Source: a bacterium
GTDB taxonomy: Bacteria > UBA8248
Reading direction: 5' to 3'
Length of the DNA stretch: 64,000 bases
Assembly (NCBI GenBank): GCA_965213625.1
Contig: CBDBZU010000004.1
Span: 4,032,001-4,096,000, forward strand
The first letter of the stretch is position 1. Every line of letters starts with the position of its first letter. Positions 16,698-42,271 of this stretch are shown in pieces. The notes below the pieces were generated by a model that saw only the letters and a list, made by a program, of their open reading frames with translations, had not been told where the DNA came from and did not search any database. The position numbers were made by a program, and so were the translations under genes.

Positions 16698-17497
16698 CTC
16701 CCAGGCGCCTCATGCAGAACAACCGTCAGTTGATGGAGATATTCTTCCCGGGCGGCCTGTTGAGAAACGGCGACGGCTGGAAGCTCTCCACGCGCGTCCG
16801 GTTCGTGCACGCGCGCATCAGGAGCCTGCTGGCGAAATCAGGCGAATGGGACTTTGAAGCCTGGGGCACGCCGCTCAGCGCGGCGAACTTGGGGTTAGCC
16901 ATCGCCATCTTCTCAATGCAGCTGCTGAGGTACTCCAAACTCGTGGGAACGCGCTTCAGCACCGAGGAGCAAGAGAGCGTTCTCGCCGTCTGGCGATACG
17001 CGGGCTATCTCATGGGAATACCCGAAACCATTCTCTACACCGACGGGGCGGATGCGGAGAGAAAATACAACATCGCCTATATGTGCGAACCTCCGCCGGG
17101 TGAAGATTCGGTGGCCATGTCGAATACGCTGATCAAGGCCATCGCGCCGGTTGCGGGCGTAACGGACTCGAAGGAGCAAAAGGATTTGACGGATCTGGCC
17201 TACCGCCTTTCCACGGCGTTGATAGGAAAAGAACTCGCGGGTCATTTCCAGTATCCGAAGCTCTCCCGCCTGTCCACGACGCTGACGCTCCACAGTTTCC
17301 GGGTGAAACAACGCCTCCTGCGCTTTCTGAATAGCAAACAAATCGTCAAATCCCAGAATTTTTCGCAGCTTCTCCAGATTTCGGTATACGACGAGGGCGG
17401 CATCAGCTACCGCATGCCCGACCACATCAAATCGTCGGAATCGAGCAAGTGGTAAGCGATGTCCGCACCCGACCCGTGATGCCGAGGTGATACGTAC

Positions 17498-19783: not shown

Positions 19784-19844
19784 CACATCTTCGACGTGAG
19801 AGAACTCAAACATGCCGCAATCGACACAAAGAGATAACAATAAT

Positions 19845-21221: not shown

Positions 21222-21361
21222 TTCTTATTGGTCTCATATCGACGAGAGGGAATTATAGTGCGCGCTCTTCTCGCCCGGGATACATCGGATGTCAAGTCCA
21301 CGCTCTTTTTGCTGATCATCCAAGGACATCTTTTTCACGTTCCAAAGAAAGAGGAGACATC

Positions 21362-22213: not shown

Positions 22214-22416
22214 AAGGGATCAATGACCGTCGGTCCATGCTGCCTGGGAGCGAGCGTCTTGAGGCGCGTTCCCATGCTCTGTCTGTTTTCACGTTCATCT
22301 ACTTTGCGCCGGTGAGGGGTTGAAGGAGACTCGACTTGAAAGAAACCAAGGTTCGCATGAACACTCTTTTGGAAACCTCCGTATTCTGGAATCTCTTCTC
22401 CAGAGCGAGAGCCACG

Positions 22417-25400
22417 ATGAGATTTTACGAGCCGCGGATCCCCGTGCGAAGCATCGCAGCCGCGGTTCTCGTATCCTTTCTGGCTGCCGGACCGGCCATG
22501 GCGCAGAACCGTGAAGCGATTTGCGAGCCCGTCGGCGGGAACCCCGCTGCTCAGGTCTGCACGGGGTCGGACTACACCGGCATCCATTACTCCCCGCAGG
22601 ACGTGCCGCAGGATGGACTGGACCTGACGATCGTGGGCGGCTCCGATAAGGCGGGCACCATTACGATCATCGGACAGGGCCTCCAGGCGCCGTTGCCGAA
22701 CGGACAAAGCATCGAGGTGATGGATCACAGCATTTCCGTGGAGTCTGCGGCTGAGGCCGCCGTTTCCGTAACGCTCGAAGGTCACACACGAATCCAGACA
22801 GACGGTGTAGGTGGCCACGGCATCAACGTGAGACAGCACCGGGCCGGCTCGTTGGACGTCACGGTGAACGGCGGTCCGATCATCACGGGGGGCCAGAACG
22901 CTTATGGCGTGAACGCCGAGCATCTGGGCAAAGGCGACATCTCCATCACAGTCGGGAAGGGCGCCGACATCACGGCGAAACGCGAGGGAAGCAACGCCGT
23001 GCAAGGATTCCAGCATCACGACGGCTCCGTAACCATTCGGGTCGAGGAAGACGCCGTCTTAAGAGGAGCGCCAGGACTTGGCAGGGGCATTGCCGCCTTC
23101 TTGACGAACGATGAAAACAGCGGCCGCATCGTAATCGACAACAAAGGGACAATCCTGGGTGGTTCCTTGACGGAGGGCATCCTCGCATGGGCCCGCCGCA
23201 GAAGCGGGCATATCGGCTACACCAGAGAGGACGGCGGGAGGCAAGCTCCCGTGGAGATAATGAACGACGGGGCCCGTGAGGAGCCGCTGATCCATATCGT
23301 CTCGAGCGGAACGATACGGGTCGGTGATCCGGATATCATCGGCCTGCCGGCCCAGCCGGATCCACAATCGCTCTCCCTCGGGATCAACCTCGGCATCGTC
23401 AATGGACTCCTCAAACCTCCACTTCCCCCGGCCGGAGCGGGGATCCGGGCATACGCGGTCGACCTGGTGGATATGCTGGTTCATGTCGCCACGCCAAAAA
23501 TCCTGACACCTGACGAGTTAACGATCCTCGCCGCTCAGCTGCAGATCCCTTCTCCCCCCGAACTGACGCCTGCGCAAGTGCTGGCGGGTGCGCTCGGCGC
23601 AGTCGACGCACGAGGAAATCCCCTGCCCGTAAAGGTCCTCTCGCCAGCGGAAGCGGAGGTCATTCGCGAAATCCTGAATGACACCGGCGAGGATCGCCTG
23701 AAGGAGGCGCTCGATAATTTGACGTTGGCGACCTCACCAGAATACACGGAAGCCTACAAGAACAGAGTCCGCGAATTCGAGGTGAGCTACAACGCCGGCG
23801 ACATCCTGATTGAAGTGACGGGCGGAAGCATCACGTCCTTCGACGGTTTTGGCATTCACGCCGGCTATCCCATACCGAGCAGTATGAGAAACGGCGAGGT
23901 TCGCGTTTCCGTATCGCAGGGAGCCTCCGTGACGGGTTATCTCGACGGCATCAGGCTGGCCACGGGCGGCATTGTCGACGGCAGGCGCCAACACTTCGTT
24001 CACGTCGCAGGTGAAGTCACGGGACAGTTCGGCGTCGGTGTTCATCCGGTCGCAGGCGGCGACGTGACGGTCGCGCGCACCGGCAGGGTATCCGGATATA
24101 CTGGCATTTATTTCGCCGGAGGCACGGGCAACGGTGATTTCCCCGTCACGAACAACGTGGCGAGGGTGTTCGGCGAGGTGGCGTCGACCGGCCCCTTGCT
24201 CCAGACGATAACGGACCCCCTGACCCGGGAAGTAACCAACGTCAGACACGCAGGAATCAAACTCGAAGGCGGCGGTACAGTGATCGTCGGTCCGCACGCG
24301 CGGATCACGGCGCAATCGGGGGTGGCGATCCTCGGCGAACCATGGAGCGCAAGGCCCAACGCGCCCGCCGACGTCGCAGTGGTGATTGAGCCGGGCGGGA
24401 ACATCGAGCAACGGATTCAGGGCGCTATCAGGAATCTACCTGGCGCCGACGGAGCCTCGCGCGCCCCCCGGATATACCTTCAGCCGGGCAATCGCGCCCT
24501 GCCATTGACTGAAGGAAGCAAGATGCCGCTCGGCGTCTGGGACGTCAGCCTACAAGATGATAACGGAGACATCTCCGTAACAAGTGAATGCGGCGCGCGT
24601 GCGCAGGTGTACGAGGCGCTGCCATTCGTGTTGACGGATCAGGCCCGCCTCGCGACTTACCAGGAGAGGATGCTTGCCGCGCGCAACACCCAGGGTTTCT
24701 GGGTCCGCCCCACATTCGGCGGCGGCAAGTGGAGCGCTAAGACCTCGACATACGGCGGGACCTCCTACGATTACGATGGCTATCGGCTGGAAGGCGGGCT
24801 CGATATTCCCACTGGCAAGCACGTCACCCTCGGCGTAGCGGCGCACCACCGCCGCAGTTCCGTGGATGTCGGAGGCGTCGGCGAAATTACGCTGGCGGGC
24901 GAGGGGTTGAGTCTTTCCGGCGCCCTGGATAACGGGCGCTACTATGTCGACGGCCAGATTGCGATAGGCTGGCACCGCCTGGATATGAACGCCGCCTCCC
25001 TGGGCGCCATCGCGTCGGACGTTTCCGGTTCCGATTATGCGTTGGGAATCGAGGTCGGCCGCCTTACCGAAATGGGCAGTCTGCTCCTTACGCCGAGAAC
25101 AGGATTGGCCTACTCTTCGTTCTCACTGGATGATTTCACCGCCGGGGCGTCCACCGGCGGCGGCGCGGTTTCGGTGGAAGACGCCGAGAGCATGGTGGGC
25201 CGCGTGGGCCTTCTTGTGGAGAAGGGCGAGGAGGATGCGCGCCGCCTGTTCGCGTCGGTGGACATCGAGCACCAGTTCCTGGGCGCCGAGAAATCGATTA
25301 TCGTCGCGAGCACGAAATTGTCGGCGCGCGCCCACCCGACCCGGGTCCGCTTGGGTCTCGGCGGCAGTATGCGACTGGGCGATCGCGTGCCGCTTCTTCA

Positions 25401-25479
25401 GGGGCAGCTCGGGTTCACGACGGCGGGAAACAGCACCTACGACTTCCTCGCGGAAATGAAAATGAAGTTCAGCTTTTAG
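22417..25479 (+). CDS. Autotransporter (type Va) outer-membrane protein
   Basis: Signal peptide ending PAMA, Gly/Thr-rich beta-helix-like passenger, C-terminal barrel (FWVRPTFG, LTPRTGLAY) ending in F. Confidence 0.85.
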   Translation: MRFYEPRIPVRSIAAAVLVSFLAAGPAMAQNREAICEPVGGNPAAQVCTGSDYTGIHYSPQDVPQDGLDLTIVGGSDKAGTITIIGQGLQAPLPNGQSIEVMDHSISVESAAEAAVSVTLEGHTRIQTDGVGGHGINVRQHRAGSLDVTVNGGPIITGGQNAYGVNAEHLGKGDISITVGKGADITAKREGSNAVQGFQHHDGSVTIRVEEDAVLRGAPGLGRGIAAFLTNDENSGRIVIDNKGTILGGSLTEGILAWARRRSGHIGYTREDGGRQAPVEIMNDGAREEPLIHIVSSGTIRVGDPDIIGLPAQPDPQSLSLGINLGIVNGLLKPPLPPAGAGIRAYAVDLVDMLVHVATPKILTPDELTILAAQLQIPSPPELTPAQVLAGALGAVDARGNPLPVKVLSPAEAEVIREILNDTGEDRLKEALDNLTLATSPEYTEAYKNRVREFEVSYNAGDILIEVTGGSITSFDGFGIHAGYPIPSSMRNGEVRVSVSQGASVTGYLDGIRLATGGIVDGRRQHFVHVAGEVTGQFGVGVHPVAGGDVTVARTGRVSGYTGIYFAGGTGNGDFPVTNNVARVFGEVASTGPLLQTITDPLTREVTNVRHAGIKLEGGGTVIVGPHARITAQSGVAILGEPWSARPNAPADVAVVIEPGGNIEQRIQGAIRNLPGADGASRAPRIYLQPGNRALPLTEGSKMPLGVWDVSLQDDNGDISVTSECGARAQVYEALPFVLTDQARLATYQERMLAARNTQGFWVRPTFGGGKWSAKTSTYGGTSYDYDGYRLEGGLDIPTGKHVTLGVAAHHRRSSVDVGGVGEITLAGEGLSLSGALDNGRYYVDGQIAIGWHRLDMNAASLGAIASDVSGSDYALGIEVGRLTEMGSLLLTPRTGLAYSSFSLDDFTAGASTGGGAVSVEDAESMVGRVGLLVEKGEEDARRLFASVDIEHQFLGAEKSIIVASTKLSARAHPTRVRLGLGGSMRLGDRVPLLQGQLGFTTAGNSTYDFLAEMKMKFSF

Positions 25480-26018: not shown

Positions 26019-27260
26019 TCATTCGATGACGACATGCTCGCGAGTGGGTTCTCCCAGGTGCTCCATGCCCGTCTCTGTGACGAGCACGGTATATTCCGCA
26101 TGCACGCCGCCCTCCCCGAATTTGCCGGAGGGCAATTCCACCGAGAGCACCGCGCCCGCCGGCAGGGAAATGTCTGAATTTGCAGGCAAAAACGGATCGT
26201 CGAGCTTCACGGGCTCGCTCAGCGTATAGGGCAGTTCGCGCGCCTCGATGCCTATCGTGTGCCCGCAGAAGGCGCCGTTGTAGCGCGGCAGGCCCGATTT
26301 TTTCGCCGCCGCCACCGCCGCGCGAAAGATCCCGGATGGCTTCACACCCGCCCTGATAACGCCGAAAGCGGCCTCCAGCCCCGCCTGGATGGCGCTCCAC
26401 TGCGCCTTGCGCTCCGCGTTCGGCTCGCCGAACGAGCCGCAACAACCCACATCCCCACAATAGTGGTTCAGCCGCATCCCCGCATCGAAGAAAAACCCGT
26501 CTCCGGGCTCGAATTTCCGATCAGAAGGTGGAAAAATGGACGCCGAACGCCTCCCGCCACCCAGATGAAACCAACTCCATTTGCCGCCTGCTGCGGCCAC
26601 GGTGCGGTAGTAGTGGCTCGCCACCTCGCGCTCGGTTCGCCCCACGACCATCCCCTCGTGAAACGCGACGACGGCTTGTTCGTTCAAGAGCGCCGCGGCG
26701 CGCATGCGCTCGATCTCTTCTTCCGTTTTTTGAAGGCGAATCAGCCGAAACAGGCTTGAGGCATCCATAAAAGATACACCCGGTAGAGCCGCTTCCAGGG
26801 CACCGCGCGTAGCCGGGCGAATACCTTCGTTATCGAGCGCCACTTTCCCGCTCGACAAACCCCGCTCACGCAATATCCTGAGCAGAGCGTCCACAGAATT
26901 CGCCTCGCGCGGGGCGTCTTCGGCGATGAGAGATATGTAATTCCTCTCTTCTTCGGTAGCTCCCGCTTCGCCGGGCGCCATATCGAGCGCCGAGCGGGGG
27001 CCGTAGCCCCTCACATCCTCGATCCACGAACCCGTCGCCGCGTAGTAGGTCTCATCCTGACGGGAAAGTATCAGCCCGGGCGGAGAAGACTGATCCCGAA
27101 AGAACAGTGCGAAAGTCTCCGTCGTGGCATCGCCATAGGTATATTGCGCCCAGCCCTGAAAACCCGAGAGATACAAGACGTTGTGCCTTGTCGTGGCTAT
27201 CAGCGCGTCGAGATCGAACCTCTCCATGAATTCGAGCGCGCGTTCCTTATGAAAAAGCAT
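26019..27260 (-). CDS. Xaa-Pro peptidase (M24) family protein
   Basis: Creatinase-like N-domain, KTEEEIERMRAAA, FDAG..GDVG, GHTIG..E, VE..EYTVLVTETG. Confidence 0.85.
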   Translation of the reverse strand: MLFHKERALEFMERFDLDALIATTRHNVLYLSGFQGWAQYTYGDATTETFALFFRDQSSPPGLILSRQDETYYAATGSWIEDVRGYGPRSALDMAPGEAGATEEERNYISLIAEDAPREANSVDALLRILRERGLSSGKVALDNEGIRPATRGALEAALPGVSFMDASSLFRLIRLQKTEEEIERMRAAALLNEQAVVAFHEGMVVGRTEREVASHYYRTVAAAGGKWSWFHLGGGRRSASIFPPSDRKFEPGDGFFFDAGMRLNHYCGDVGCCGSFGEPNAERKAQWSAIQAGLEAAFGVIRAGVKPSGIFRAAVAAAKKSGLPRYNGAFCGHTIGIEARELPYTLSEPVKLDDPFLPANSDISLPAGAVLSVELPSGKFGEGGVHAEYTVLVTETGMEHLGEPTREHVVIE

Positions 27261-27286
27261 GAACATCCTCAAGTAAGAATAGTGAA

Positions 27287-30200
27287 CTATGTTAGGGGTT
27301 CAGAAATCTTATAATCCTTGATTTGCCGGATTAGCGGAATCGCGCCGCAAACCAGGCCCGCTACCAGCATGGTGATACTGAAGAAAATGACGAACAAAAT
27401 AAACGTGATGAAGCAGACGAACAACAGGATTCGCTCGTATTTATAAAGCCTCCCCAGAAGCCAGCCTTGTGTTCCCGCCGAAAAAGCGATGAAGCCCAGG
27501 AGCGTCATGGATGCGGAGAGAGCGACACGCAAAGGATGCGCGAACGTAAGCAGGGCCGGGTCAAACATGAACAAAAACGGCACGATAAAGCCGACGATGG
27601 CGAAGCGAAGAGACATCATGGACGTCTGGAAATAGGACGCGCCCGCCAGCTTGGCTCCCACGAGCGAAGCTATCGCCACGGGCGGCGTTATGGCGGAGAG
27701 AATCGCGAAATAGAAGATGAACATATGGGCGGCTACCCGGTCTCCTTTGGCGGCCACGAACTCCTTCACCCATTCGGCTCCGTACACATGCGTAAGTTCA
27801 GGACCCACGAGTTTAATCAGTACGGGGCCGCCCAGAATAGCGAGCAGCACGTATGCCGCCGTCGTCGGCATGCCCATTCCCAATATCGCACAGCAAATCG
27901 CAGTGAGCAGGAGCGCAACGAAGAAACCATCGAGACCAATATAATACGCGCACCCGCCGCCCGCCGCAGGGCCGAAGAAGCAGATATCCTGGGCGAGAGC
28001 CTCGATCATATAGGCGAATTTATTTCCCACGCCCGTGATGGTCAAAACCTGCACGACGACTTCGATGGTGGCCAGCGTCACGGCGAACTCCGCCCCTTGC
28101 CTTCCACCTACCCTCAAGGCATCGCGAATGCTGAAAATCCAGTTCGAGGCGCTCTGCGCGGCTTCTACGCCTGCGCCCGTCTCGCCCGTATTCTTTGCCC
28201 GCTGCAGGTAGGTAAACGGATTACAAGATACGGCCAGCACCTGTTTCATGCTCGGCGTCGCGCTATCGGCGTCAGATTCTTGCGAGCCGAATGAAAAGAT
28301 AACCTTCTGCACGATAATGGCCAATCCAAAAAAGATCAGGCCGTCATAGATGAACCCGAAGGGAACGAACCATTCGCCAAAATTCGCTATTCCGGGGGCG
28401 AGAGCGTAAATCCCTTTTTGCACGTAATACGCACCCACCCAAATCATGACGAAATACCAGGGTATGGTCGTAGTAGGTTGCGCCCCATTCCCCCTTAAAA
28501 CAGACCATGCACTGAGCAAAGCAAGCACAATGGCGGCCCCCGCCACGCCGGAAGACCAGCCGAAAGCACTCCATAAGGCCAGCAAAGTGAGCGGGAAGAC
28601 GGCTAGCCAGCTACGCTCTATCTCATTCCAGAATTCACCCACCCAGGAGAAGGTGCGGGTGAAAACACTTACCAGAACGAACCCGGTGACACCCAATGCC
28701 AGAGCGGCCCGTATGGCGCCGCCCCAAGTTGGTTTTCCGTATATCCCCAGTGGCACTCCGAATCCCAATTCGAAAATCGAGAAAACGGCAAACAGGAAGA
28801 AAGCGAAAACCCAAAACGTGACCGGCACGAAAACGAATATTTCATCGGCAATGGTCTTATCGCCCCTCCTCATCGTGCCCAGAAATTCCGCCACTCTCCG
28901 GTAAAACCAAACGCCCACCATGATGAAAACCGACATGACGCCCGCAAACACGGGTGTTCTGCCCTCGAAGAGGAAATAGACCAAAAAGGCCAGGGGCACG
29001 AGGTAGAACCATCCGTTCTTCAGTTCCTTTTTCCAACTTGGGATCTCGGATTCGGGCAATGGCTTGATATTCAGCGCACCGGCCGCAAAGTGGATGTTAA
29101 TCCCAACAATGGTGAAATATAAAATGGCCGGTATGGTGGCGTATCCGATAAGCTGGAAATACGGCACTTCGATTAGTTCACTCATGATGAAGGCGCCCGC
29201 CCCCATGACAGGCGGCATGATTTGCCCCCCGCTGCTAGCCGCTGCTTCCGCCGCTCCAGCGATGTGCGGGCTCAGCCCGATTCGCTTCATCAGGGGAATC
29301 GTGAATGTGCCTGTGGTCACGACGTTACCGGATGCGCTGCCCGACACCGTACCCATGAGCGCGCTCGACCCCACTGCGGCGAGACCGGCGCCTGCACGCA
29401 TTTTCCCGAACAGACCCAAAGCGAAATTCACGAAAAAGCGGCCGGCGCCCGATTCATGCAGAAACGCCCCCAGAATGAGGAACATGATGATAAACGTCGC
29501 CGAAATGACGACCAGAAAACCCAATACACCACCGATAAAGTCCGTCGAGAGTTTCGCCTGAAGTTCGAGCCATGTATGGCCGCCGTGCCCGAAAGGAGGC
29601 GCAAAGAGATTGCCCCAAATGCCATAGACGAAAGCAATAACCGCCAATGTCGGAAGGGGAGGTCCGAAACAACGCCTCGTCAATTCGATAGCGACGACGA
29701 GCATGACAAAGCCGACGCGCGCATCGCCAATCGTCGGGGCGCCGGGGCGATCGACCATCTCTTCATGGTAGTAGAACAAGTACAGGCAGGCGGTTGCTAC
29801 GAAAAAAAGCATCCCGGCGTTCAGGCCCATCGTGAACCCCGCCGGAAAAGGATGCGCAGGGTATTCTTCAAATACCTCTTTGATTCGTCTTTTGGCCCAA
29901 AAAAGAGGAAAAGCGAACACAACTACCGGCCAAAGGGACAAGACGCTTCTCACCTCATCGCTTTGCCCGGCCCATAAACCAACCCGCCATCCGATCAGAA
30001 TAAGCGCAACAAAAAACACCGCGAGGAAAACGCCTGCTTTTTTCACCCCCTCGGCAGGCCTGAAGAAAACGGCGAACAAGGTCCACATCACAGGAATGGC
30101 GGAGCATGCGATTATAAGCCACCAGTGCGTCGGTTCATGCGTGCTTTCGGGCAAAGAATCCCAATACAGGAACAGTATCGGCGCAGGAACAAAACTCAAA

Positions 30201-30613
30201 ACCCATAGCAAAAGCGCGAGCCATGACTTCTCGACGACCATCATCGCTATCCATAAAGCGAACGGAAGCGCATAAACCCACCAAACACTCCAGTCAGACC
30301 AACCTTCCCCCATCTCATAGACGAAATAATAAAAAATGACTGCGGGAACCAGGGACAAAAGATAAAAAACGGGAAGAAAGTTCAATTTGCGAATTTTGTC
30401 CCCATAAATCTGAGGCATCGCCCCGGCGCCACCGATGAGGAGAATCGTATAGGCCAACAGCATGTGCATGTTGGGGTGCATCTCACCCGGTAAAGGCCGC
30501 AGATAGACTGCGGAAACGTGGTACAAACCCGACAGCACACATAACCATGAAGCGATGAAAACCAGAGCCCTTACGAGAGGAGCCGATTGGGTGGGGTCTG
30601 ATTCAGTACTCAT
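27287..30613 (-). CDS. TRAP transporter fused (4TM/12TM) permease with large hydrophobic insertions
   Basis: GTVSGSASGNVVTTGTFTIPLMK, EAAASSGGQIMPPVMGAGAF, LGMGMPTTAAY, SAITPPVA; ~1108 aa. Confidence 0.9.
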   Translation of the reverse strand: MSTESDPTQSAPLVRALVFIASWLCVLSGLYHVSAVYLRPLPGEMHPNMHMLLAYTILLIGGAGAMPQIYGDKIRKLNFLPVFYLLSLVPAVIFYYFVYEMGEGWSDWSVWWVYALPFALWIAMMVVEKSWLALLLWVLSFVPAPILFLYWDSLPESTHEPTHWWLIIACSAIPVMWTLFAVFFRPAEGVKKAGVFLAVFFVALILIGWRVGLWAGQSDEVRSVLSLWPVVVFAFPLFWAKRRIKEVFEEYPAHPFPAGFTMGLNAGMLFFVATACLYLFYYHEEMVDRPGAPTIGDARVGFVMLVVAIELTRRCFGPPLPTLAVIAFVYGIWGNLFAPPFGHGGHTWLELQAKLSTDFIGGVLGFLVVISATFIIMFLILGAFLHESGAGRFFVNFALGLFGKMRAGAGLAAVGSSALMGTVSGSASGNVVTTGTFTIPLMKRIGLSPHIAGAAEAAASSGGQIMPPVMGAGAFIMSELIEVPYFQLIGYATIPAILYFTIVGINIHFAAGALNIKPLPESEIPSWKKELKNGWFYLVPLAFLVYFLFEGRTPVFAGVMSVFIMVGVWFYRRVAEFLGTMRRGDKTIADEIFVFVPVTFWVFAFFLFAVFSIFELGFGVPLGIYGKPTWGGAIRAALALGVTGFVLVSVFTRTFSWVGEFWNEIERSWLAVFPLTLLALWSAFGWSSGVAGAAIVLALLSAWSVLRGNGAQPTTTIPWYFVMIWVGAYYVQKGIYALAPGIANFGEWFVPFGFIYDGLIFFGLAIIVQKVIFSFGSQESDADSATPSMKQVLAVSCNPFTYLQRAKNTGETGAGVEAAQSASNWIFSIRDALRVGGRQGAEFAVTLATIEVVVQVLTITGVGNKFAYMIEALAQDICFFGPAAGGGCAYYIGLDGFFVALLLTAICCAILGMGMPTTAAYVLLAILGGPVLIKLVGPELTHVYGAEWVKEFVAAKGDRVAAHMFIFYFAILSAITPPVAIASLVGAKLAGASYFQTSMMSLRFAIVGFIVPFLFMFDPALLTFAHPLRVALSASMTLLGFIAFSAGTQGWLLGRLYKYERILLFVCFITFILFVIFFSITMLVAGLVCGAIPLIRQIKDYKISEPLT

Positions 30614-30736
30614 ATTTCTCCTTCTTTCTCCACCGTGGTGGTGCATCATGGTCAAACGAAGCTAAAGATGTGAACAATTCCATTCTAGCGGATAGCCTCA
30701 TTGTTTTGCCAGCGACTCAGCGACTCATGAATATCC

Positions 30737-30801: not shown

Positions 30802-30936
30802 AACCACATGGTTTTGCTTTAGTATAGCCGCCTCGATAGACATTCAAGACTTGGCATTTTATTCATGAGTTTCGATTTAACTGATCGAAACAAACATTTG
30901 CTTGAGTAATTTTCACTATCCAAAAAGGAGATGCAA

Positions 30937-31911
30937 ATGAGAAAAGCAACCTTTCGGTTGATTACGCTGGCTGCTGGCCTTGCCCTGGTTATCAGCGCGG
31001 CCCCGGCGGCGGGTGCAGCCAAAATCCTTCTGGGAACCTCCCAGCCCGGCGGCGCCACTTTCGAGATTGGAACTGCGATGGGCAAAGTCATCACGGATAA
31101 CTCGGGCGGAAAAATTTCCGTAGATGCAGCCGTCACCGGTGGTTCCACCGCAAACGTCCGCATTCTTCAGAAGAAGAACAAAATGCAGCCTTTCCGCATG
31201 GGCATGGCCACGGCGCCTGCCGTCGCATGGGGGCAGACGGGCAGAAAACCCTTCAAAAAACCCCAGGACGTTCTGGCCCTCGGGGCTCTTTACCCGTTGA
31301 CGATTGTCTACACCACCTTCAAGACCACAGGCATCAAAAAGTGGTTTGACCTCACCGGCAAACGATTCGTCGTCGGCGGTCGTGGCGGCTCGATCTACAT
31401 CGTCACGCAAATTGCGCTCAAGCACAGCGGCATGTTCAAGAAAGTGAAACGCGAATTCTTCAACAACAACCAAAACTCGGCCGCCATCAAAGACCAACGG
31501 GTGGACGCGGGCTTTTTCTTCCTGAACGGTGGGGTTCCCGCACCTGTGTACATGGATCTCGCACGCACGCTCTCCGGCAAGCTCCATTTCTTCGGTCCGG
31601 ATGAAGCCACCATCAAAAAACTCGCCGATACCGAAGCGGGCATCGTGCGCGATGTCGTGCGCGCCGGCTCCATCCCCGGTTACGACAAGGACGTCGTAAG
31701 CTGGGGCCAGATGTGGTCTTTGATGACCAACAGCAAAATGAGCAACGACAACGCATATGCGATTGTCAAAGCCCTGTATGACAATCACAAGCAAATCACC
31801 AAATACCACCCGGCCGGAAAATTCATCACCAAGAAAACCGGCCTCCGCGGCCTGAAGAAACTCAAACTGCATCCGGGTGCGGCTCGCTACTGGAAAGAGG
31901 CGGGCATGTAA
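30937..31911 (+). CDS. TAXI-family TRAP solute-binding protein
   Basis: Signal peptide, GTSQPGG, TGGSTAN, VGGRGG, LHPGAARYWKE. Confidence 0.9.
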   Translation: MRKATFRLITLAAGLALVISAAPAAGAAKILLGTSQPGGATFEIGTAMGKVITDNSGGKISVDAAVTGGSTANVRILQKKNKMQPFRMGMATAPAVAWGQTGRKPFKKPQDVLALGALYPLTIVYTTFKTTGIKKWFDLTGKRFVVGGRGGSIYIVTQIALKHSGMFKKVKREFFNNNQNSAAIKDQRVDAGFFFLNGGVPAPVYMDLARTLSGKLHFFGPDEATIKKLADTEAGIVRDVVRAGSIPGYDKDVVSWGQMWSLMTNSKMSNDNAYAIVKALYDNHKQITKYHPAGKFITKKTGLRGLKKLKLHPGAARYWKEAGM

Positions 31912-31957: not shown

Positions 31958-32046
31958 GTTGTCTCTTATACTCCTCGCCATCCATGAAAATGATGTTAAA
32001 ATCGAATCTCACCTACATACCAACGACTCATTTCTCGGGAGGAAAA

Positions 32047-32655
32047 ATGAGCACATCCGGTTTTGAAACCTTCCATCTCGTAAAGCCCGATGAGGCCGAA
32101 GGCGAAGTTTCGCAAATTTATGACGAGATATGCCGATTGAAAGACCCCCGCTGGCTGGGGCCTTTATTCGGGTTCTTCGCCCATGTGCCGGGTCTCTTGC
32201 GGGGATTCTGGGAACTACAAAAACGCCTCGAAGTGCTGGATGGCCACATATCGCGCGAGTTGACCAATCGCATCGCCATGGTTTGCGCGGTCGCCTCAGA
32301 CTGTCCTCGTTGCGTGAATTTCCATAAAACCGACCTCGTCCACCGCATGGAACTCGATGAGTATGAAGTGGAAAAACTCCATGACTTTGAAAATGCGGAT
32401 TTGCCCGAAGCGGAAAAAGCGGTTTTCCGCGTGGCCAGAAAACTCACACTCAACGAACAAATGAGCGACGAAGAATTCCAGGCTTTGCGCGAGCATGGCT
32501 TCAACGAGCCGGCAATCGTGGAGATCGTCTCCGTCGCCTTGCTGGAGGGTGGCTTTGCGCGTCACGCGAGCGTGCTTGCGCGATTTGAAGACGGGATGGA
32601 CTGGCCGGCGCAACATACCCCGTCCGCCGAATACAGAAGCGTCATCGACAGTTAG
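32047..32655 (+). CDS. AhpD/carboxymuconolactone decarboxylase-like protein
   Basis: EAEGEVSQIYDEI, SDCPRCVNFH (CxxC..H), LREHGFNEPAIVEIV. Confidence 0.78.
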   Translation: MSTSGFETFHLVKPDEAEGEVSQIYDEICRLKDPRWLGPLFGFFAHVPGLLRGFWELQKRLEVLDGHISRELTNRIAMVCAVASDCPRCVNFHKTDLVHRMELDEYEVEKLHDFENADLPEAEKAVFRVARKLTLNEQMSDEEFQALREHGFNEPAIVEIVSVALLEGGFARHASVLARFEDGMDWPAQHTPSAEYRSVIDS

Positions 32656-33197: not shown

Positions 33198-35156
33198 GTG
33201 CCAGAATCCAAGAACTTGCTCAGAATGATGAAAATCGACAAAACCTTTCCGGGCGTTCATGCGCTCAAGGAAGTTGATTTCGATCTAGAAGAAGGCGAAA
33301 TCCACATACTATTGGGTGAGAACGGGGCCGGAAAATCCACACTCATCAAAATTTTGGCAGGCATGTATCACGCCGACTCAGGCCAAATCGAGATTAGCGA
33401 AACACCCACCAGTATCCCCGACGCTAGAACCGGGCGCGATTTGGGAATCAGCGTCATCTACCAGGAACTGAACCTGGTGCCTGATCTGAGCGTGGCCAAA
33501 AACATCTTCCTGGGTCGTGAACCGGTCGTGCCCGGCGTCATGAAGCGTGTGGATTGGGCTAGAGTAGAACAAGAATCTCGCGCGATCATGGAGCGCCTGG
33601 ACGTGAAAATCGACATCAACGCGCCGGTCCGCTCTCTAAGCGTTGCGGATCAGCAAATGGTGGAGATCGCCCGGGCTCTTGCGTTTGACTGCAAAATATT
33701 GGTGATGGATGAGCCCACATCTTCTCTGAGCGGGCATGAAATCGAGGAACTTTTCAAGGCCGTCAACCGGTTGCGAGAACACGGTGTCGGCATCATTTAC
33801 ATCTCCCACCGCCTTGAAGAAGTCCACGAGATTGGAGACCGCGTCACTGTCCTGCGCGACGGGGAATATATGGGCACGTGGGGAGTCAAAGAGGTGGAAC
33901 TCGATTTCCTGATCACGCAGATGGTGGGGCGCACGCTCGATGAGAAATTCCCCTGGACGCCCCGCGAACATGGGGAAGTGGCTCTCCGGGTACGTGGACT
34001 CACCCGAAACGGCGTATTCGAAGACATTAATTTTGACCTCCGCTATGGTGAAATCGTCGGTCTATCAGGTCTTGTAGGCGCCGGGAGAACAGAAGTGGCG
34101 CGAGCCGTCATGGGCGCGGATCCCGTTGATAGCGGCACCGTAGAGATGACCCGTGCGACAAAAGAGAAAGAAGAGATACAGGAACTACCCCACTATCCGC
34201 TTTGGATGGCCATCGTGGACGTGGTTGTCTTAATAATGGCTTTGCCCTTGTTCACCGTAATTTTCCAGGGAATTTACGATCCCGTCACGCTCAACATGAA
34301 CTCACCGCCACCGCTATTCAGTGGCAAGTGGTTTTATGAATGGATTATCGGCGGACCGTTATACAACATACCGAACGGCCCCACCCCCTATATCGTCGCC
34401 GCCGGGTTGGTCGTTATACGGCAAGCGGGTCTCTGGTTCATGGAGCGGCAGTATCATTGGCGCACCTTGGTCATCGACTTCGCAAGCTGGTACGCCCTCG
34501 CGATAGGCGCGATGGTCATTACGAGCCTGTTCACACAGAATTTCGTGCTCGAATGGGTCATGATCTGGGGTGGCGTCGCTATGGTTCTGATTCGATTCTT
34601 GACAATCCTCACCCATGAGCGCAAGTGGACTCCAACCTTGGCCATACGACGCGGGCTGGGTCTATTGCCCGAGGACAGGAAAACCCAGGGCCTTACCCAG
34701 GTTCTCTCGGTCGCCTTTAACACTACTAGCGCGAATCTCCGCCGCCTCATTAAACGGTGGCTGCTCAATTTGACCATGGAAAAAGATCTCGTAGATGAAC
34801 ACATCAATCAGCTAAAAATCATGACGCCGGATCAGGATACGCAAATACGCTTCCTGTCAGGCGGCAATCAGCAAAAAGTCGTTCTCGCCAAATGGCTCTT
34901 CAGACGTGCGAATGTACTCATTTTTGATGAGCCGACCCGCGGAATCGACATAGGCGCAAAATTTGAAGTTCACTCGCAAATGCTGCAACTTGCCAAAGAC
35001 GGCGCCGCGGTAATGATGATCTCGAGTGAACTGCCCGAGATTCTTGGAATGAGCGACCGCATTCTGGTGATGCGGGAAGGACAACTCACAGCAGATATCG
35101 GCAGAAACGAAGCAACGCAGGAAGGCATTCTGCGATACGCCATGACCGCGGATTGA
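33198..35156 (+). CDS. CUT2/RbsA-type ABC ATPase (two NBDs) with an inserted hydrophobic domain
   Basis: GENGAGKST, VMDEPT, YISHRL, GLVGAGRTE, LPEDRK, LSGGNQQK, FDEPTRGID; ~150-aa hydrophobic insert at ~34150-34630. Confidence 0.9.
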   Translation: MPESKNLLRMMKIDKTFPGVHALKEVDFDLEEGEIHILLGENGAGKSTLIKILAGMYHADSGQIEISETPTSIPDARTGRDLGISVIYQELNLVPDLSVAKNIFLGREPVVPGVMKRVDWARVEQESRAIMERLDVKIDINAPVRSLSVADQQMVEIARALAFDCKILVMDEPTSSLSGHEIEELFKAVNRLREHGVGIIYISHRLEEVHEIGDRVTVLRDGEYMGTWGVKEVELDFLITQMVGRTLDEKFPWTPREHGEVALRVRGLTRNGVFEDINFDLRYGEIVGLSGLVGAGRTEVARAVMGADPVDSGTVEMTRATKEKEEIQELPHYPLWMAIVDVVVLIMALPLFTVIFQGIYDPVTLNMNSPPPLFSGKWFYEWIIGGPLYNIPNGPTPYIVAAGLVVIRQAGLWFMERQYHWRTLVIDFASWYALAIGAMVITSLFTQNFVLEWVMIWGGVAMVLIRFLTILTHERKWTPTLAIRRGLGLLPEDRKTQGLTQVLSVAFNTTSANLRRLIKRWLLNLTMEKDLVDEHINQLKIMTPDQDTQIRFLSGGNQQKVVLAKWLFRRANVLIFDEPTRGIDIGAKFEVHSQMLQLAKDGAAVMMISSELPEILGMSDRILVMREGQLTADIGRNEATQEGILRYAMTAD

Positions 35157-35178: not shown

Positions 35179-36192
35179 ATGAGCGCCGCAGCTTCAACGG
35201 GAAGTGAAAAACTCATTCTAGGTTATTCGGTCAAGGATATTCCCTGGGAGCGTTTGCTGCTCATATCCGCTTTCGTAGCCTTGATGATTTTCTATACTTT
35301 CGCAACCGAAAATTTCCTCACACTCGAAAACTTTGTGAATGTAGTGCGCCGTGACGCATGGCTCTTTTTTCTGGCTTACGCCCAAACATTGGTCATCATT
35401 TCGGCAGGGTTTGATCTTTCACAAGGCTCCATCATGAGTGTGGTTAGCGTGATGACCTGGAGCGCGATGCTGCACTTCGGGTTTTTCGTCGGCCTCATCG
35501 CCGGCCTCGGCATCGGTTTGCTGTGCGGCGTCATCAATGGGTTTTTCGTCGGAGTGGCGAGAGTGCAGCCGTTCATCGCGACGCTGGGGATGCTCTTCAT
35601 TGGCAGCGGCGCGGCCCAGCTTTGGACCGGCGGTCTTCAAATGGGGGGTGCGCGCGAGGGCGCAACCTTGCCCAAACACGTCGAAGATGCTTATGTCCTT
35701 TTGGCAAAAGGAAACCTGGGTCCCATCCCCTTCACCTTCATCTGGATACTCATCGCACTTGGCGCCATGTGGTATCTGCTCAAATACACCCGTTTTGGCA
35801 CTTATGTGTACGCCTTGGGCGGAAACGAACAAACAGCGATTTCCGCAGGGATCAATTTTCCCGCCATGAAGATCGCCATTTTCGGCATAGGTGGACTTTT
35901 GTGTGGTTTCGCGGGCCTTCTTCTTTCAGCAAGCGTCAGCGCGGCGGGCGAGCCGAGGCTGGGCGGTGGCGATCAACTGCTTCAATCGATCGGAGCGACC
36001 ATCATCGGCGGCACGCATATTTTTGGCGGGCGAGGCGGCGTATTGGGTACAACGCTGGGTGTTTTCCTGATCATATTCCTGGTGAACGGACTGAACATCA
36101 TGGGAATCGATACATACCGGCAACAGATAGTTGTCGGCTTGGTGATTCTCGCTTCAATCTGGGTGAGCACCCTGCGTGAGCAAAAAAACTAA
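35179..36192 (+). CDS. Sugar-type ABC transporter permease (RbsC-like)
   Basis: GFDLSQGS, QPFIATLG, YALGGNE, IIGGTHIFGGRG. Confidence 0.9.
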   Translation: MSAAASTGSEKLILGYSVKDIPWERLLLISAFVALMIFYTFATENFLTLENFVNVVRRDAWLFFLAYAQTLVIISAGFDLSQGSIMSVVSVMTWSAMLHFGFFVGLIAGLGIGLLCGVINGFFVGVARVQPFIATLGMLFIGSGAAQLWTGGLQMGGAREGATLPKHVEDAYVLLAKGNLGPIPFTFIWILIALGAMWYLLKYTRFGTYVYALGGNEQTAISAGINFPAMKIAIFGIGGLLCGFAGLLLSASVSAAGEPRLGGGDQLLQSIGATIIGGTHIFGGRGGVLGTTLGVFLIIFLVNGLNIMGIDTYRQQIVVGLVILASIWVSTLREQKN

Positions 36193-36207: not shown

Positions 36208-37203
36208 ATGGCGAATGTAGCGGAGGCTCAGGTCAGACCTTCTGCCTCCTTATTGGCCAAGTTCAATTACGAGAAATATGGTTTGCTCGTCGTTTTCATC
36301 ATGATGATGCTCATATTTTACATTCTCCAGTTGATGGGCTACGTGAACAACTTTATCGAAGCCCATAACCTGACCAACCAACTCAGAAACGCTTCTCTGC
36401 TGTTCTTCATCGTCGCAGGACAAAGCATGGTGCTCCTGGTTTCAGGCATCGATTTGAGTCAGGGGTCCTTGCTCAGCCTCTCGAGCGTAGTGATGGCGCA
36501 AGGCATCTTGGACTTCGGCCTTGCCGTGGGCGTGTTGATGGGTATCGGAATGGCGACGATGTTCGGTTTTATCAACGGCTACCTCGTGGGCCGTGTAAAA
36601 ATCCAACCTTTTATCGTCACCTTGAGTATGCTTTTCATCTGCGCCGGCATTGCTTTGGTATTCACGGGCGGACGCACGATTCACCAATTCACGAGTGAGC
36701 AAAAAGATATTCTGCAAACCATCGGCCTCACGGATTTCTTTCATATTCCCGGCACGCTGTTCATCGCCATTTTCTTCTTCATCCTGCTCTATCTGCTAAC
36801 GAAACGTACGGTTCTCGGCCGGGCAATCTATTTGACAGGCGGGAACGAAGAGGCCGCGCGCCTCTCGGGCATAGATACCGGTAAGGTGAAACTCATTTGC
36901 TATTTGATAAGCGGCATCTGCGTAGGCATCACCTCGTTCCTTTACCTGGCGAGACTCCCGGCCACAAACGGCCTCGCTGGATTTCAGCTTGAATTCCAAT
37001 CATTGGCGGCCACCGTGGTGGGGGGCACGACGTTCCACGGCGGCGAGGGCGGCGTGACGCAAGCAGTGATCGGGACGCTGTTCCTGACATTCTTACTTAA
37101 TGGCCTAATTCTCCTGGGGGTGGGCACATTCGCCCGGGAGGTAGTGGTAGGCGTATTACTAATTACGGCCGTGGTTTTGAGTTCCCGCAAGCGGCGGGAA
37201 TAG
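36208..37203 (+). CDS. Sugar-type ABC transporter permease (RbsC-like)
   Basis: GIDLSQGS, QPFIVTL, GGNEEAARLSGI, VVGGTTFHGGEG. Confidence 0.9.
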   Translation: MANVAEAQVRPSASLLAKFNYEKYGLLVVFIMMMLIFYILQLMGYVNNFIEAHNLTNQLRNASLLFFIVAGQSMVLLVSGIDLSQGSLLSLSSVVMAQGILDFGLAVGVLMGIGMATMFGFINGYLVGRVKIQPFIVTLSMLFICAGIALVFTGGRTIHQFTSEQKDILQTIGLTDFFHIPGTLFIAIFFFILLYLLTKRTVLGRAIYLTGGNEEAARLSGIDTGKVKLICYLISGICVGITSFLYLARLPATNGLAGFQLEFQSLAATVVGGTTFHGGEGGVTQAVIGTLFLTFLLNGLILLGVGTFAREVVVGVLLITAVVLSSRKRRE

Positions 37204-37292: not shown

Positions 37293-38351
37293 ATGAAAAA
37301 ACTGTTCCGCACTTTCATGATTCTCGCTTCTGTCGTCACATTCTCGTTTGTGTCGATGGCGGCGGCACCGGACGCCGATGCCCGGGTGAAGGCGAAGAAG
37401 AAATACAAAATCGCCGTCGTCGTGCCAAACGGCGTCGACCCCTATTTCTTCTCGAAATGGTACGGCAGCGTCCAGGCGGCCAAAGACGCCGGCGTGACCG
37501 TGACCATGTTCGACGCGGGCGGCTACGAGTTCCTGCCCAAGCAGGTGGCCCACGTGGAGGACATCATCGCAGCGAAGTACGACGGAATGATCATCTGCCC
37601 CATCAGCACCAAGGGCATGGTGAACGCCGTACACAAGGCGATGGACAAGGGAATCAAGGTCGTCGTGGATAACATCGACCTCGACAGTGCTCGCGTGAAA
37701 AACCGCGTCATGAAAAACAGCTATGAACTGGGCCTTCTCATCGGCGCCACCATGGCCCACGCCATCAACTACCAGGGTAAAGTCATGATGCTGCCCGGAC
37801 CCAGCGGCATCGAGATGGTGACCTCCATGGCCAAAGGGTTTGAGGACTACCTGGGTCACTACCCGAAAATCAAGATTGTGGCCAAGGAATTCACCAAGTC
37901 CAACGTGCAGCATGCCTACCAGACGGCGGAGGACCTGCTCAAGAAGCACCCGGACGTCAAAGGCATTTACCCCTGGGCGACACTCATCGCCCGCGGCACG
38001 GTGGACGCCGTGAAAGCGGCCGGTTACAAGCCCGGCCAGATCAAGATCGTGACGCACAACCTCGTCGTCGGCATCGAGAAAGATATTCGTGACGGCTGGG
38101 TACATGCGGCTGTCTTGGCCGAGCAGATCGCCATGGCGAAAGAAGCCGTCTATAACGTGATCGACCTGATTGAAGGCCGGCAGCCCCCCGGCGCGCCTCA
38201 TCGCGGCGGCACGCTCAGCTACATCAAGAACTACATGGCCTACCAGCACAACCTCGACATTCTGGATCGAAGCGGCATCGAGGCGCCCAAAAACTGGATG
38301 ATCAAGCGCCAAAAGCGCGCGACGAACATCGTGGGCGGCAAACGCCGTTAA
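37293..38351 (+). CDS. Sugar-type ABC substrate-binding protein (Peripla_BP type 1)
   Basis: Signal peptide, IAVVVPNGVDPYF, DGMIICP, GIKVVV; RBS GAGGAGGAG. Confidence 0.88.
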   Translation: MKKLFRTFMILASVVTFSFVSMAAAPDADARVKAKKKYKIAVVVPNGVDPYFFSKWYGSVQAAKDAGVTVTMFDAGGYEFLPKQVAHVEDIIAAKYDGMIICPISTKGMVNAVHKAMDKGIKVVVDNIDLDSARVKNRVMKNSYELGLLIGATMAHAINYQGKVMMLPGPSGIEMVTSMAKGFEDYLGHYPKIKIVAKEFTKSNVQHAYQTAEDLLKKHPDVKGIYPWATLIARGTVDAVKAAGYKPGQIKIVTHNLVVGIEKDIRDGWVHAAVLAEQIAMAKEAVYNVIDLIEGRQPPGAPHRGGTLSYIKNYMAYQHNLDILDRSGIEAPKNWMIKRQKRATNIVGGKRR

Positions 38352-39923: not shown

Positions 39924-41105
39924 ATGCCCAGAAGAAGCAATATCAAGCTTACCAAACGCGTCGTCGAGGCGCTATCTGTCGAGAGGAACGACGGAGCCTT
40001 CTGGGACCGGGACCTGGCCGGCTTCGGGGTGCGGGTCTACGCCACGGGCCGGAAGGTCTACGTGGTGCAGTCACGTGGGCCGTGGGGACCCAAGCGCGTG
40101 ACGCTCGGCCGTCACGGGGAGCTGTCGTGCGATGAGGCGAGGAAGGCGGCGGCCGGTGTCATCGACCGCATCAGGCGCGGAGAGGCTCCCGTTGCCGCGC
40201 CACCCGAGGCGGAACCAACGGTGGCCGATCTGGTCGAGCGCTTCATGCGCGAACATGCCGGGACGCACTGCAAGCCCGATACCGCCGTGATGTACCGCTC
40301 CGTGAGCATGAATCACATCCTTCCGGCGCTGGGCGGGACGCCGCTCGCCGAGGTCGGGCGGGCGGAGGTCACGGCCCTCCATCACGGTCTGCGCGAGACG
40401 CCCGCCACCGCCAACGCGGCCCTGGGCCTTCTCTCTAAAATGTTCAAGATGGCCGAGGCGTGGGGCCTGGTTCCTGCCGGGAGCAACCCGTGCCGGGGGC
40501 TTCGCCGCTACCGGACGCGGAAGCGGGAGCGGTTTCTGACGAAAGAGGAATTCCGCCGCCTGGGCCGGGCGCTACGTGACCTGGAGGCGGAGGGGAGGAT
40601 GTGGCCCCCTGCCGTCGCGGCCATCAGGCTCCTTGCGCTTACCGGATGCAGGCGGAGCGAGATCCTGGATCTTCGCTGGGACGATGTGGACCGCACGGCG
40701 GGGGAGTTCAGGCTCAAGGACGCCAAGGCGGGTCCTCGCATGGTTCCGCTGACGGCGCCCGCGCTCAGGGTGCTGGACGGGATTCCCCGCTCGCCGGAGG
40801 ATCCCTGGGTGATCCCCTCGAAGTACGGGAGAGGCCGCCTGGGGAACCTCTCCTACTACTGGGGGGCCGTGAGGGAGAGCGCGGAGTTGGACGACGTTCG
40901 GATCCATGACCTGAGGCATTCCTACGCCTCGCGGGCGCTGGCGCTGGGCGAGAGTCTGTCCACGATCGGCAGGTTGCTCGGCCATCGTCACGTGGTGAGC
41001 ACGGCGCGCTACGCGCACCTGATGCGGGACGCCGAGAAGGCGGCGGCCGCCCGGGTGGGCGAGAGCATCAGCGCCCACGTCACGAACGGGAGGATGGATG
41101 GATGA
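39924..41105 (+). CDS. Tyrosine recombinase/integrase with N-terminal arm-binding domain
   Basis: WDRDLAGFGVRV arm domain; TGCRRSE, HDLRHS, LLGH, TARYAH. Confidence 0.93.
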   Translation: MPRRSNIKLTKRVVEALSVERNDGAFWDRDLAGFGVRVYATGRKVYVVQSRGPWGPKRVTLGRHGELSCDEARKAAAGVIDRIRRGEAPVAAPPEAEPTVADLVERFMREHAGTHCKPDTAVMYRSVSMNHILPALGGTPLAEVGRAEVTALHHGLRETPATANAALGLLSKMFKMAEAWGLVPAGSNPCRGLRRYRTRKRERFLTKEEFRRLGRALRDLEAEGRMWPPAVAAIRLLALTGCRRSEILDLRWDDVDRTAGEFRLKDAKAGPRMVPLTAPALRVLDGIPRSPEDPWVIPSKYGRGRLGNLSYYWGAVRESAELDDVRIHDLRHSYASRALALGESLSTIGRLLGHRHVVSTARYAHLMRDAEKAAAARVGESISAHVTNGRMDG

Positions 41106-42271
41106 CGACGAGGCCCGCTGTGAAAACGCTCTCGAACCGGCTGGTCGCGAAGCTCACGGTCGAAAAGGACACTGTTTTCTGGGATCGCGACCTCACCGGC
41201 TTCGGGGTGCGGGTATATCCCACGGGGAGCAAGGTCTACGTCGCGCAGGCGCGTGGCCCCGAAGGCCCCAGGCGCGTGACGGTGGGCCGCCACGGCGTGA
41301 TACATGCCGATGAGGCCAGGAAGCGCGCCGCCCACATCATCGCGCGCGTCAAGGCGGGCGAGGAGGCCGTGCCCAAGCCGATGAACCCCGCAGGCGGTCC
41401 CACCGTGGCCGAACTCGCGAGACGCTATCTCGCCGAATACGTCTCCGTGCGCTGCAAGCCGAGCACAGCGAAGACGGTCCGCTCCGTGGTTCTGAAGCAC
41501 GTCGTGCCTGCGCTCGGGAAGCTGCCCCTCGCGTCGGTCGAACGCAAGCACGTGGCGGAACTCCACGGGCAGCTGAGCACCACGCCCGCGGCCGCTAACC
41601 AGGCCGTCCGGGCGCTGTCCGCCATGTATCGCCTGGCAGGGGAGTGGGGCATGGTTCCAGAGGGGACGAATCCCTGCCGCGCCATCGCCGAATACCCCGG
41701 GCGCAGGCGGGAGCGGTTCCTCACCGCGGCTGAGTTCGAGCGGCTTGGGAAAACCCTCGATGAAACGGAAGAGAAGGGCGGCGCGTCGGAGAGCGCGGTG
41801 ACCGCCATCAGGCTCCTGATCCTGACCGGGTGCCGGAAGTCGGAGGTCCTTGGCTTAAGCTGGGAGGAGGTGGCGCTTGACGATGCGGAACTGAGGCTCT
41901 CCGACTCCAAGACGGGTGCGCGGGTCGTTTCGCTTTCGGAACCCGCCGTGAAACTCCTCGCGGGTCTGCCACGCCTCCCCCGCAATCCCTGGGTGCTCCC
42001 CGGCAGGAAGCCCGGGACGCACCTTCGAAAGCTGGACGACACCTGGCAGTCCGTCCGCGCACGCGCCGGGCTTCACGACGTGCGCCTTCATGACCTGCGT
42101 CATTCGTTCGCCTCGAGAGCGCTCGCGCTCGGCGAGGGCCTCACCGTGATCGGGAAGCTCCTGGGCCACGCCAGGATCGAGACCACCTCGCGCTACGCGC
42201 ATCTCGCGCGCGATTCGGTGCGGGAGTCCGCAGAGCGTGTGGCGGAGAGTATCGCCGAAGACCTGCTGTAG
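41102..42271 (+). CDS. Second, paralogous tyrosine integrase (ATGA overlap with the first)
   Basis: WDRDLTGFGVRV; TGCRKSE, HDLRHS, LLGH, TSRYAH. Confidence 0.93.
   Translation: MTTRPAVKTLSNRLVAKLTVEKDTVFWDRDLTGFGVRVYPTGSKVYVAQARGPEGPRRVTVGRHGVIHADEARKRAAHIIARVKAGEEAVPKPMNPAGGPTVAELARRYLAEYVSVRCKPSTAKTVRSVVLKHVVPALGKLPLASVERKHVAELHGQLSTTPAAANQAVRALSAMYRLAGEWGMVPEGTNPCRAIAEYPGRRRERFLTAAEFERLGKTLDETEEKGGASESAVTAIRLLILTGCRKSEVLGLSWEEVALDDAELRLSDSKTGARVVSLSEPAVKLLAGLPRLPRNPWVLPGRKPGTHLRKLDDTWQSVRARAGLHDVRLHDLRHSFASRALALGEGLTVIGKLLGHARIETTSRYAHLARDSVRESAERVAESIAEDLL

Follow-up and report, generated by a model that had tools for sequence, protein, structure and literature searches.

ATP-binding cassette (ABC) importers are described with nucleotide-binding domains (NBDs) that are cytosolic chains apart from the membrane domains (PMC4245157, PMC13543919), and a further source deals with extra helices for permeases only (PMC3654945). 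In RbsA, the second Walker A motif is reported to be degenerate (PMC11466899). Outside the importers, the ATPase of the Bacillus subtilis teichoic acid exporter TagGH is described as carrying a membrane helix of its own together with an extracellular domain (PMC11466899). Two membrane helices are inserted within the P-loop domain of the Tmn/YobI nucleoside triphosphatases (NTPases) (PMC13001434), and archaeal LonB is described with a membrane-anchoring domain embedded in its ATPase module (PMC9569914). The subject of this study is a CUT2/RbsA-type ABC ATPase encoded in a 64,000-nucleotide stretch of bacterial DNA (assembly GCA_965213625.1, contig CBDBZU010000004.1, positions 4,032,001 to 4,096,000; hereafter the window), in which a predicted four-helix membrane domain, termed the insert, interrupts the second NBD (NBD2). 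A literature search covering few subscription journals yielded, among the matches listed, no membrane insert within an ABC ATPase domain; we could not find this architecture described, and the precedents of Tmn/YobI and LonB lie outside the ABC proteins.

The insert extends from GTVEM (ending at residue 317) to TPTLAIRR (from residue 478), and lies between Walker A and the Q-loop of NBD2. It replaces the 8-residue beta-hairpin turn of its relatives ('GTVEI-FGKEIRPK-SP'), with a net gain of 152 amino acids (aa). For the homologue comparison, the 120 best of 7,684 hits were used, comprising 98 insert-free proteins, 19 full-length insert-bearing proteins besides the window protein, and 3 partial proteins that were not scored. 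Between the second Walker A and PEDR, every one of the 20 full-length insert-bearing proteins has 197 residues, whereas the 98 insert-free ones all have 44-46. An earlier reading of the letters alone (the sequence-only reading) had proposed about 150 extra residues in place of a short CUT2 loop, an intact frame, and two separate permeases with a binding protein. The comparison bore this out with 160 residues against 8, an unbroken open reading frame (ORF) of 652 aa, and two full-length permeases followed by the binding protein. The transporter is laid out as follows:

33198..35156, + strand: double-NBD ATPase of CUT2/RbsA type, 652 aa, membrane domain within NBD2 (intact ORF; ABC_tran; NCBIfam)
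33198..33926, + strand: NBD1, aa 1-243, with Walker A GENGAGKS, Q-loop Q89, Walker B E172 and H-loop H204
33978..34148, + strand: first part of NBD2, aa 261-317, with beta strands, Walker A GLVGAGRT (Lys to Arg), a helix and the strand GTVEM leading into the insert
34149..34628, + strand: inserted domain, aa 318-477, 160 residues, of no known family (alignment, AlphaFold)
34629..35156, + strand: second part of NBD2, aa 478-652, with the PEDRK loop, the canonical signature LSGGNQQK, Walker B LIFDEP and H-loop ISSE
35179..36192, + strand: permease 1, RbsC-like, 337 aa, full length, coupling loop GGNEQTAISAG (PF02653)
36208..37203, + strand: permease 2, RbsC-like, 331 aa, full length, coupling loop GGNEEAARLSG (PF02653)
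37293..38351, + strand: periplasmic binding protein, likely start at 37293 (Peripla_BP_4)

By alignment and by homology to NBD1 and to solved NBDs, the insertion point is the 'IDG' hairpin after the Walker A helix. We take this hairpin to belong to the outer beta-subdomain, distant from the ATP sites.

The insert is no artefact. A scan of GTDB genomes confirmed 22 insert loci out of 152 pattern matches (67-98% identity), and nine of the 22 insert-bearing genomes are chromosome records of 2.9-4.5 Mb. A search with the insert region gave 21 protein clusters among 1,164 candidates (63-90% identity, several independent sources), and a 22nd cluster was found in the homologue search. The GC content of the insert (0.53) and its GC at third codon positions (GC3, 0.69) compare with 0.52-0.54 and 0.58-0.62 in the rest of the gene. 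One apparent frameshift, in locus L021, is a 10-N scaffold gap within the ATPase gene (L021 4544-4553) and not a broken gene. No second copy of the insert was found in the window or in the 22 loci.

For the membrane character of the insert, composition, hydropathy, charge distribution and structure models were evaluated. The predicted elements are, from the N-terminal side:

34149..34199, + strand: charged cytoplasmic stalk helix (aa 319-328) and a PHY motif toward the membrane (AlphaFold, composition, conservation)
34200..34265, + strand: predicted membrane helix 1, aa 335-356, running in to out, with a kink at the invariant A-L-P350 and the invariant D341
34266..34382, + strand: predicted periplasmic loop, aa 357-395, with the short aromatic helix WFYEW (predicted local distance difference test, pLDDT, 49-63)
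34383..34442, + strand: predicted membrane helix 2, aa 396-415, running out to in, the least hydrophobic, with the invariant R408-Q409
34458..34532, + strand: predicted membrane helix 3, aa 421-445, running in to out, with the invariant D427 and W431
34533..34628, + strand: predicted outer turn TQNF and membrane helix 4 (aa 451-477, out to in), with the invariant E452 and R466

Residues 335-474 are 8.6% charged and have a grand average of hydropathy (GRAVY) of 0.87. These values resemble those of the permeases (9.5-10.6% and 0.86-0.91) and not those of the NBDs (24-28% and about -0.1), contrary to what a soluble insert would give. All four hydrophobic stretches of the sequence-only reading were recovered. 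Three helices pass a Kyte-Doolittle 19-residue mean of 1.5 (peaks 2.69, 1.78, and 2.02), though the YIVAAG stretch, which is helix 2, falls below it (family mean 1.24). In AlphaFold, this stretch forms a 20-residue helix at pLDDT of about 87-90. The model of the insert alone, built from 39 sequences, reached a mean pLDDT of 73 and a predicted template modelling score (pTM) of 0.68, with four long helices at pLDDT 74-93. Helix 4 extends into the cytoplasm in this prediction and rejoins NBD2 a few residues ahead of the PEDRK loop.

Both ends of the insert are necessarily cytoplasmic, and an even number of membrane crossings is therefore required. Lys and Arg residues average 3.5, 0.4, 2.0, 0.05, and 3.1 per loop from the first to the last, which fits an in-out-in-out-in topology. 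A two-pass arrangement fits worse, because a basic loop would then face outside. In helices 2-4, the variable face lies 10-38 degrees from the hydrophobic face, as for lipid-facing surfaces. The four helices thus very probably span the inner membrane with both ends inside, which would make the ATPase an integral membrane protein.

The insert is under purifying selection, two to three times weaker than that on the NBD cores. Codons were aligned for the window and 21 loci, without L021. Over the 154 of 231 pairs with a synonymous difference proportion (pS) under 0.6, the ratio of nonsynonymous to synonymous rates (dN/dS) was 0.125 for the insert versus 0.046-0.055 for the NBD parts, and none of the 160 insert codon columns contained a gap. 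Among the 13 closest sequences, dN/dS was 0.095 for the insert, 0.033-0.040 for the NBD parts, and 0.046 and 0.032 for the permeases. Within the insert, the long outer loop gave 0.068 (118 pairs) and the helices 0.18-0.20. Synonymous sites are near saturation among the 20 full-length proteins, yet the insert was never lost and acquired no insertion or deletion; at an overall dN/dS of 0.10-0.13, it is neither unique to this copy nor relaxed. In a FastTree phylogeny of 118 cores (insert site removed, three partial proteins left out), all 20 insert-bearing proteins were set apart from the others by a branch with support 100, a separation matched by none of 500 shuffles. The tree indicates that the insert was gained once.

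No relative of the insert was found outside its own family. Pfam and NCBIfam gave no match on the insert of the window. A weak PDR_CDR match in 3 of 16 family members (best E 0.0023) was discarded as generic hydrophobic similarity. The single match of the profile search in 1,835,955,588 representative proteins was itself a member of the insert family. The PDB sequence search with the insert retrieved a chitinase alone (E 1.5), ESM Atlas gave no usable match for two insert homologues, and phage and plasmid records held no insert match. Foldseek yielded nothing at E 0.001 or better with the insert, and only other ABC NBDs with the full-length ATPase model. The best VIA fold match, 8b5l_t (Z 8.6, root-mean-square deviation 8.8, 129 aligned residues), lies below the bar of about 13 for helical bundles and was judged a common bundle. 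A likeness to the TRAP small subunit DctQ, seen by eye, was dropped in the absence of a Pfam match and with differing loop lengths.

Apart from the insert, the transporter is an ordinary CUT2-type importer, with a double-NBD ATPase, two RbsC-like permeases, and a binding protein. In the ATPase ORF, Pfam ABC_tran was matched in three stretches. The best NCBIfam models were AraG, XylG, and RbsA (two stretches each, all below cut-off), with a top score of 550.7 bits against a cut-off of 689 for AraG and 511.7 against 745 for RbsA. Among the named equivalogs RbsA, AraG, XylG, MglA, AlsA, and LsrA, none was matched above its curated cut-off. All ten motif regions fit the CUT2 pattern of the 98 insert-free relatives. 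The statement that all ATPase motifs are retained thus holds for the CUT2 pattern, but the second site is degenerate, as it is in the relatives: the exchanges of the Walker A Lys to Arg and the H-loop His to Ser occur in all 20 insert-bearing proteins and are the commonest form in the 98 relatives. NBD1 forms the consensus site, with a non-canonical signature (LSVADQQ) as in other CUT2 ATPases, and NBD2 supplies the canonical signature for this single site. The insert therefore sits in NBD2, which has a degenerate Walker A of its own but gives the working site its signature.

Permease 1 adjoins the ATPase in all 22 loci and so does permease 2, one copy being cut by a contig end; the binding protein is kept in 21 of the 22, and the contig of the remaining locus ends early. 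Both permeases are full length and the insert therefore replaces nothing, which rules it out as a stand-in for lost permease helices. For the binding protein, the nearest NCBIfam model is TorT (105 bits against a cut-off of 200), and the closest solved structures are at E 1e-20 or weaker. Its pocket seems to be without the Arg, Asn, and Asp usual for sugar binding and to be more aromatic and TorT-like. The substrate would be a small polar solute, which need not be a sugar.

Outside the insert, 15 ATPase positions are fixed in the insert clade for residues other than those of its relatives. Those at 33420-33920 (+ strand) include A76 (Pro in 96 of 98 relatives) and the new hydrophobic residues W228 and F237, both near the linker between NBD1 and NBD2. 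These clade-specific positions are candidate contacts for the stalk of the insert.

Conservation within the insert is skewed to its predicted outer face. In the 39 aligned sequences, the long outer loop has 21 invariant positions of 39 and the short outer turn 4 of 5 (25 of 44 for the predicted outer loops combined), whereas the inner loop has none of 9 and each helix 4-8. The net charge of the outer loops is -1 to -4 in all 39 rows. We strongly infer that these conserved loops face the periplasm. The binding protein, for its part, ends in NIVGGKRR after a basic stretch in all 22 complete copies, compared among insert-bearing systems only; this basic tail (38307-38348, + strand) lies past the Peripla_BP_4 match. 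As the aligned rows are close kin and stem from insert-bearing systems only, the pairing of outer loop and tail stays a lead. Further invariant residues are polar and predicted to be buried (D341, R408, Q409, D427, and R466). At matching depths, D341-R408 and D427-R466 are possible buried pairs, which would be structural.

Our reading is that the four helices would insert the ATPase into the inner membrane and that NBD2 would fold around this excursion. The bundle would lie beside the permease pair as a built-in accessory membrane subunit. Its acidic, aromatic, and conserved outer loops would form a docking surface on the periplasmic side, for which the likeliest partner is the binding protein with its invariant basic tail. 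Such docking would keep the binding protein close to the gate and hold the parts of the complex in place, comparable to the P2 loop of MalF, which is described as binding MalE throughout the cycle (PMC6906923). ATP would be hydrolyzed at the one consensus site and coupled through the EAA loops of the permeases, as in the usual single-site CUT2 cycle. We judge such docking of the permeases or the binding protein to be about as likely as not. The proposal of a new membrane-anchored or sensor-bearing importer in the sequence-only reading is well supported computationally in its first part; for a sensor, the evidence comprises only a conserved predicted outer face.

Several points weigh against this reading. 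The variable and hydrophobic faces of helix 1 are 89 degrees apart, and helix 2 is moderately hydrophobic and holds the invariant Arg-Gln. The full-length AlphaFold model is poor (mean pLDDT 58, pTM 0.41) and cannot place the bundle relative to the permeases, and the long outer loop was modelled at low confidence (pLDDT 49-63). The 39 conservation rows are close relatives with 58-98% identity, many of them nearly redundant, and the invariant outer loops could be a mere folding core. Since overall conservation is higher in the permeases (dN/dS 0.03-0.05) and in the binding protein than in the insert, the invariant tail is also less striking. The docking role is itself weakly inferred, and most CUT2 importers function without such a domain.

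The bundle may instead be an anchor or assembly aid only, tethering the ATPase and perhaps packing on the permeases in the bilayer, with outer loops conserved for folding and touching no partner. Membrane character is the best-supported property of the insert, the inserted domain of LonB is described as a membrane anchor (PMC9569914), and the possible buried pairs D341-R408 and D427-R466 would suit a structural role. For anchoring, however, one or two helices with little conservation would suffice. The dN/dS of the outer loop (0.068) is near the NBD values and well apart from that of the helices (0.18-0.20), and the inner loop has no invariant position. We regard a pure anchor as somewhat unlikely.

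A sensor or regulator would detect a signal from the periplasm or the membrane (a solute, the pH, the state of the lipids, or the loaded binding protein) through the outer loops or a buried charged pair, and helix 4 would relay it to NBD2, bypassing the permeases. Helix 4 is predicted to be continuous from the outer turn into NBD2, just ahead of the PEDRK loop, and NBD2 gives the signature motif of the single consensus site. The invariant buried polar residues (D341, R408, Q409, D427, and R466) and the 15 clade-specific positions outside the insert are likewise in line with signalling. On the other hand, no sensor family or fold was matched in our searches, and a ligand-binding domain would be expected to be longer than the outer loop. 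The insertion point, by homology a hairpin at the periphery, need not pass on motion. This role is unlikely. A combination of docking and signalling would constitute a second coupling route, in which the tail of the binding protein docks on the outer loops and helix 4 signals straight to NBD2, past the coupling helices of the permeases. We consider it unlikely as well; if it were true, the motor of an ABC importer would span the membrane and read substrate availability itself.

An entrenched passenger, that is, a fragment of a membrane protein in a tolerant surface turn that is kept only since the complex adapted to it, is very improbable. It would agree with a site in a surface turn of the NBD with the degenerate Walker A, with a rate of evolution two to three times that of the NBDs, and with a second, unrelated membrane insert in the TRAP permease of the same lineage (described below). 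The absence of loss and of insertions or deletions in 20 full-length proteins, despite nearly saturated synonymous sites, and the skew of conservation to the outer face speak against it. An intein begins with Cys or Ser and ends with His-Asn. A mis-assembly, intein, intron, or recent gene fragment can be dismissed, as the odd architecture and nothing further suggests it, whereas the insert occurs in 22 independent genomes with host-like GC and GC3, the frameshift of L021 is a scaffold gap, and neither a Pfam match (intein domains included), nor a Cys start or His-Asn end at the junctions, nor a phage or plasmid match was found.

Upstream of the ATPase in 18 of the 22 loci lies the gene of a TRAP permease, encoded in the window as

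27287-30655, - strand: fused TAXI-TRAP permease, about 1,105-1,122 aa against the 615 positions of model TIGR02123

About 245 extra residues lie between TIGR02123 positions 368 and 380 (about 28133-28897), and the N-terminal part is about 200 residues longer than the model; both extras are hydrophobic with several hydrophobic segments. The inner insert is restricted to a small family, with 17 clusters among 6,027 candidates. Kinship between these inserts and that of the ATPase was ruled out (hhalign probability 0.6%; E 0.27 or worse). The idea that the TRAP permease likewise gains transmembrane inserts is thus correct as to the inserts, but the suggested tendency amounts to two unrelated cases, as other transporter ORFs in related loci have ordinary lengths by eye. 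The TRAP gene is flanked by genes for an M24 peptidase (26019-27272, - strand), a TAXI binding protein (30931-31911, + strand), and an AhpD/CMD-like protein (31984-32655, + strand). The first two are kept in 18 of the 22 loci and the third in 15.

Convergent with the transporter operon in 21 of the 22 loci is a molybdopterin oxidoreductase (PF00174; 38424-39518, - strand), which is MsrP-like and has a twin-arginine-like leader by eye; no tie to the insert was found. That the insert might serve this neighbouring molybdoenzyme as an MsrQ-like haem anchor had been considered and was dropped, there being no Pfam match and no invariant His in the helices. The region 39924-63952 is an integrated conjugative element with a TrwC relaxase, a coupling protein, F-type TraG/H/F/N/U/W/C, TrbC, and TrbI. 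It starts with two tandem ORFs that resemble tyrosine integrases by eye (39924-42271), and GC climbs to about 0.70 at its left end. On the other side, 15321-25479 encodes a Mutator transposase, followed by an MpaB-like oxygenase, an MMPL transporter, a flavin amine oxidoreductase, and a 1,047-aa autotransporter. No tRNA was found in the window, and the counts of the promoter and terminator scan were not above chance level.

Taken together, an ABC fold here accommodates a four-helix membrane domain that belongs to no known family and is kept across a whole bacterial lineage, whose hosts are known from assembled genomes alone. The insert identifies one turn of the NBD as permissive. It also provides a natural experiment on tethering an ABC motor to the periplasm or regulating it from there, although its role may turn out to be mere anchoring. 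CUT2 permeases had no sequence match in the PDB copy searched, and a structure of the complex would therefore be informative for the family too.

In relation to known systems, the transporter resembles the CUT2 importers (TC 3.A.1.2; RbsA, AraG, XylG, and MglA) in its fused double NBD, degenerate site, RbsC-like permeases, and Peripla_BP_4 binding protein. It differs from them in the net membrane insert of 152 residues in NBD2, seen in none of the 98 insert-free relatives listed, and from the named equivalogs in scoring below every cut-off and in a binding protein nearest to TorT. With 652 aa and four predicted membrane helices, compared to a soluble chain of about 500 aa, it is a variant of the CUT2 family and not a typical member. 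The ATPase of TagGH is likewise an ABC ATPase subunit carrying its own membrane segment, but there a single helix C-terminal to the NBD is found, in an exporter, and not a multi-pass domain within the fold. MalF P2 is an analogy for the proposed role, as an extra periplasmic element retaining the binding protein; it belongs, however, to the permease of a type I importer and is a large Ig-like domain, unlike short ATPase-borne loops. KAP NTPases, too, are said to have membrane helices inside the P-loop domain. A preprint, in contrast, places them outside it (PMC13001434), and KAP was absent among the 15 Pfam families listed, the host domain of the ATPase being ABC_tran. The arrangement is shared with Tmn/YobI, whose membrane helices also lie inside a P-loop NTPase domain; these proteins are not ABC proteins, act in anti-phage defence, have two helices, and showed no sequence relation to the insert in our searches. 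LonB has an AAA+ fold, is a hexameric protease, and is unrelated in sequence. What the present ATPase would add to these cases is an NBD that can fold around a membrane excursion, as the YobI/Tmn and LonB ATPases do.

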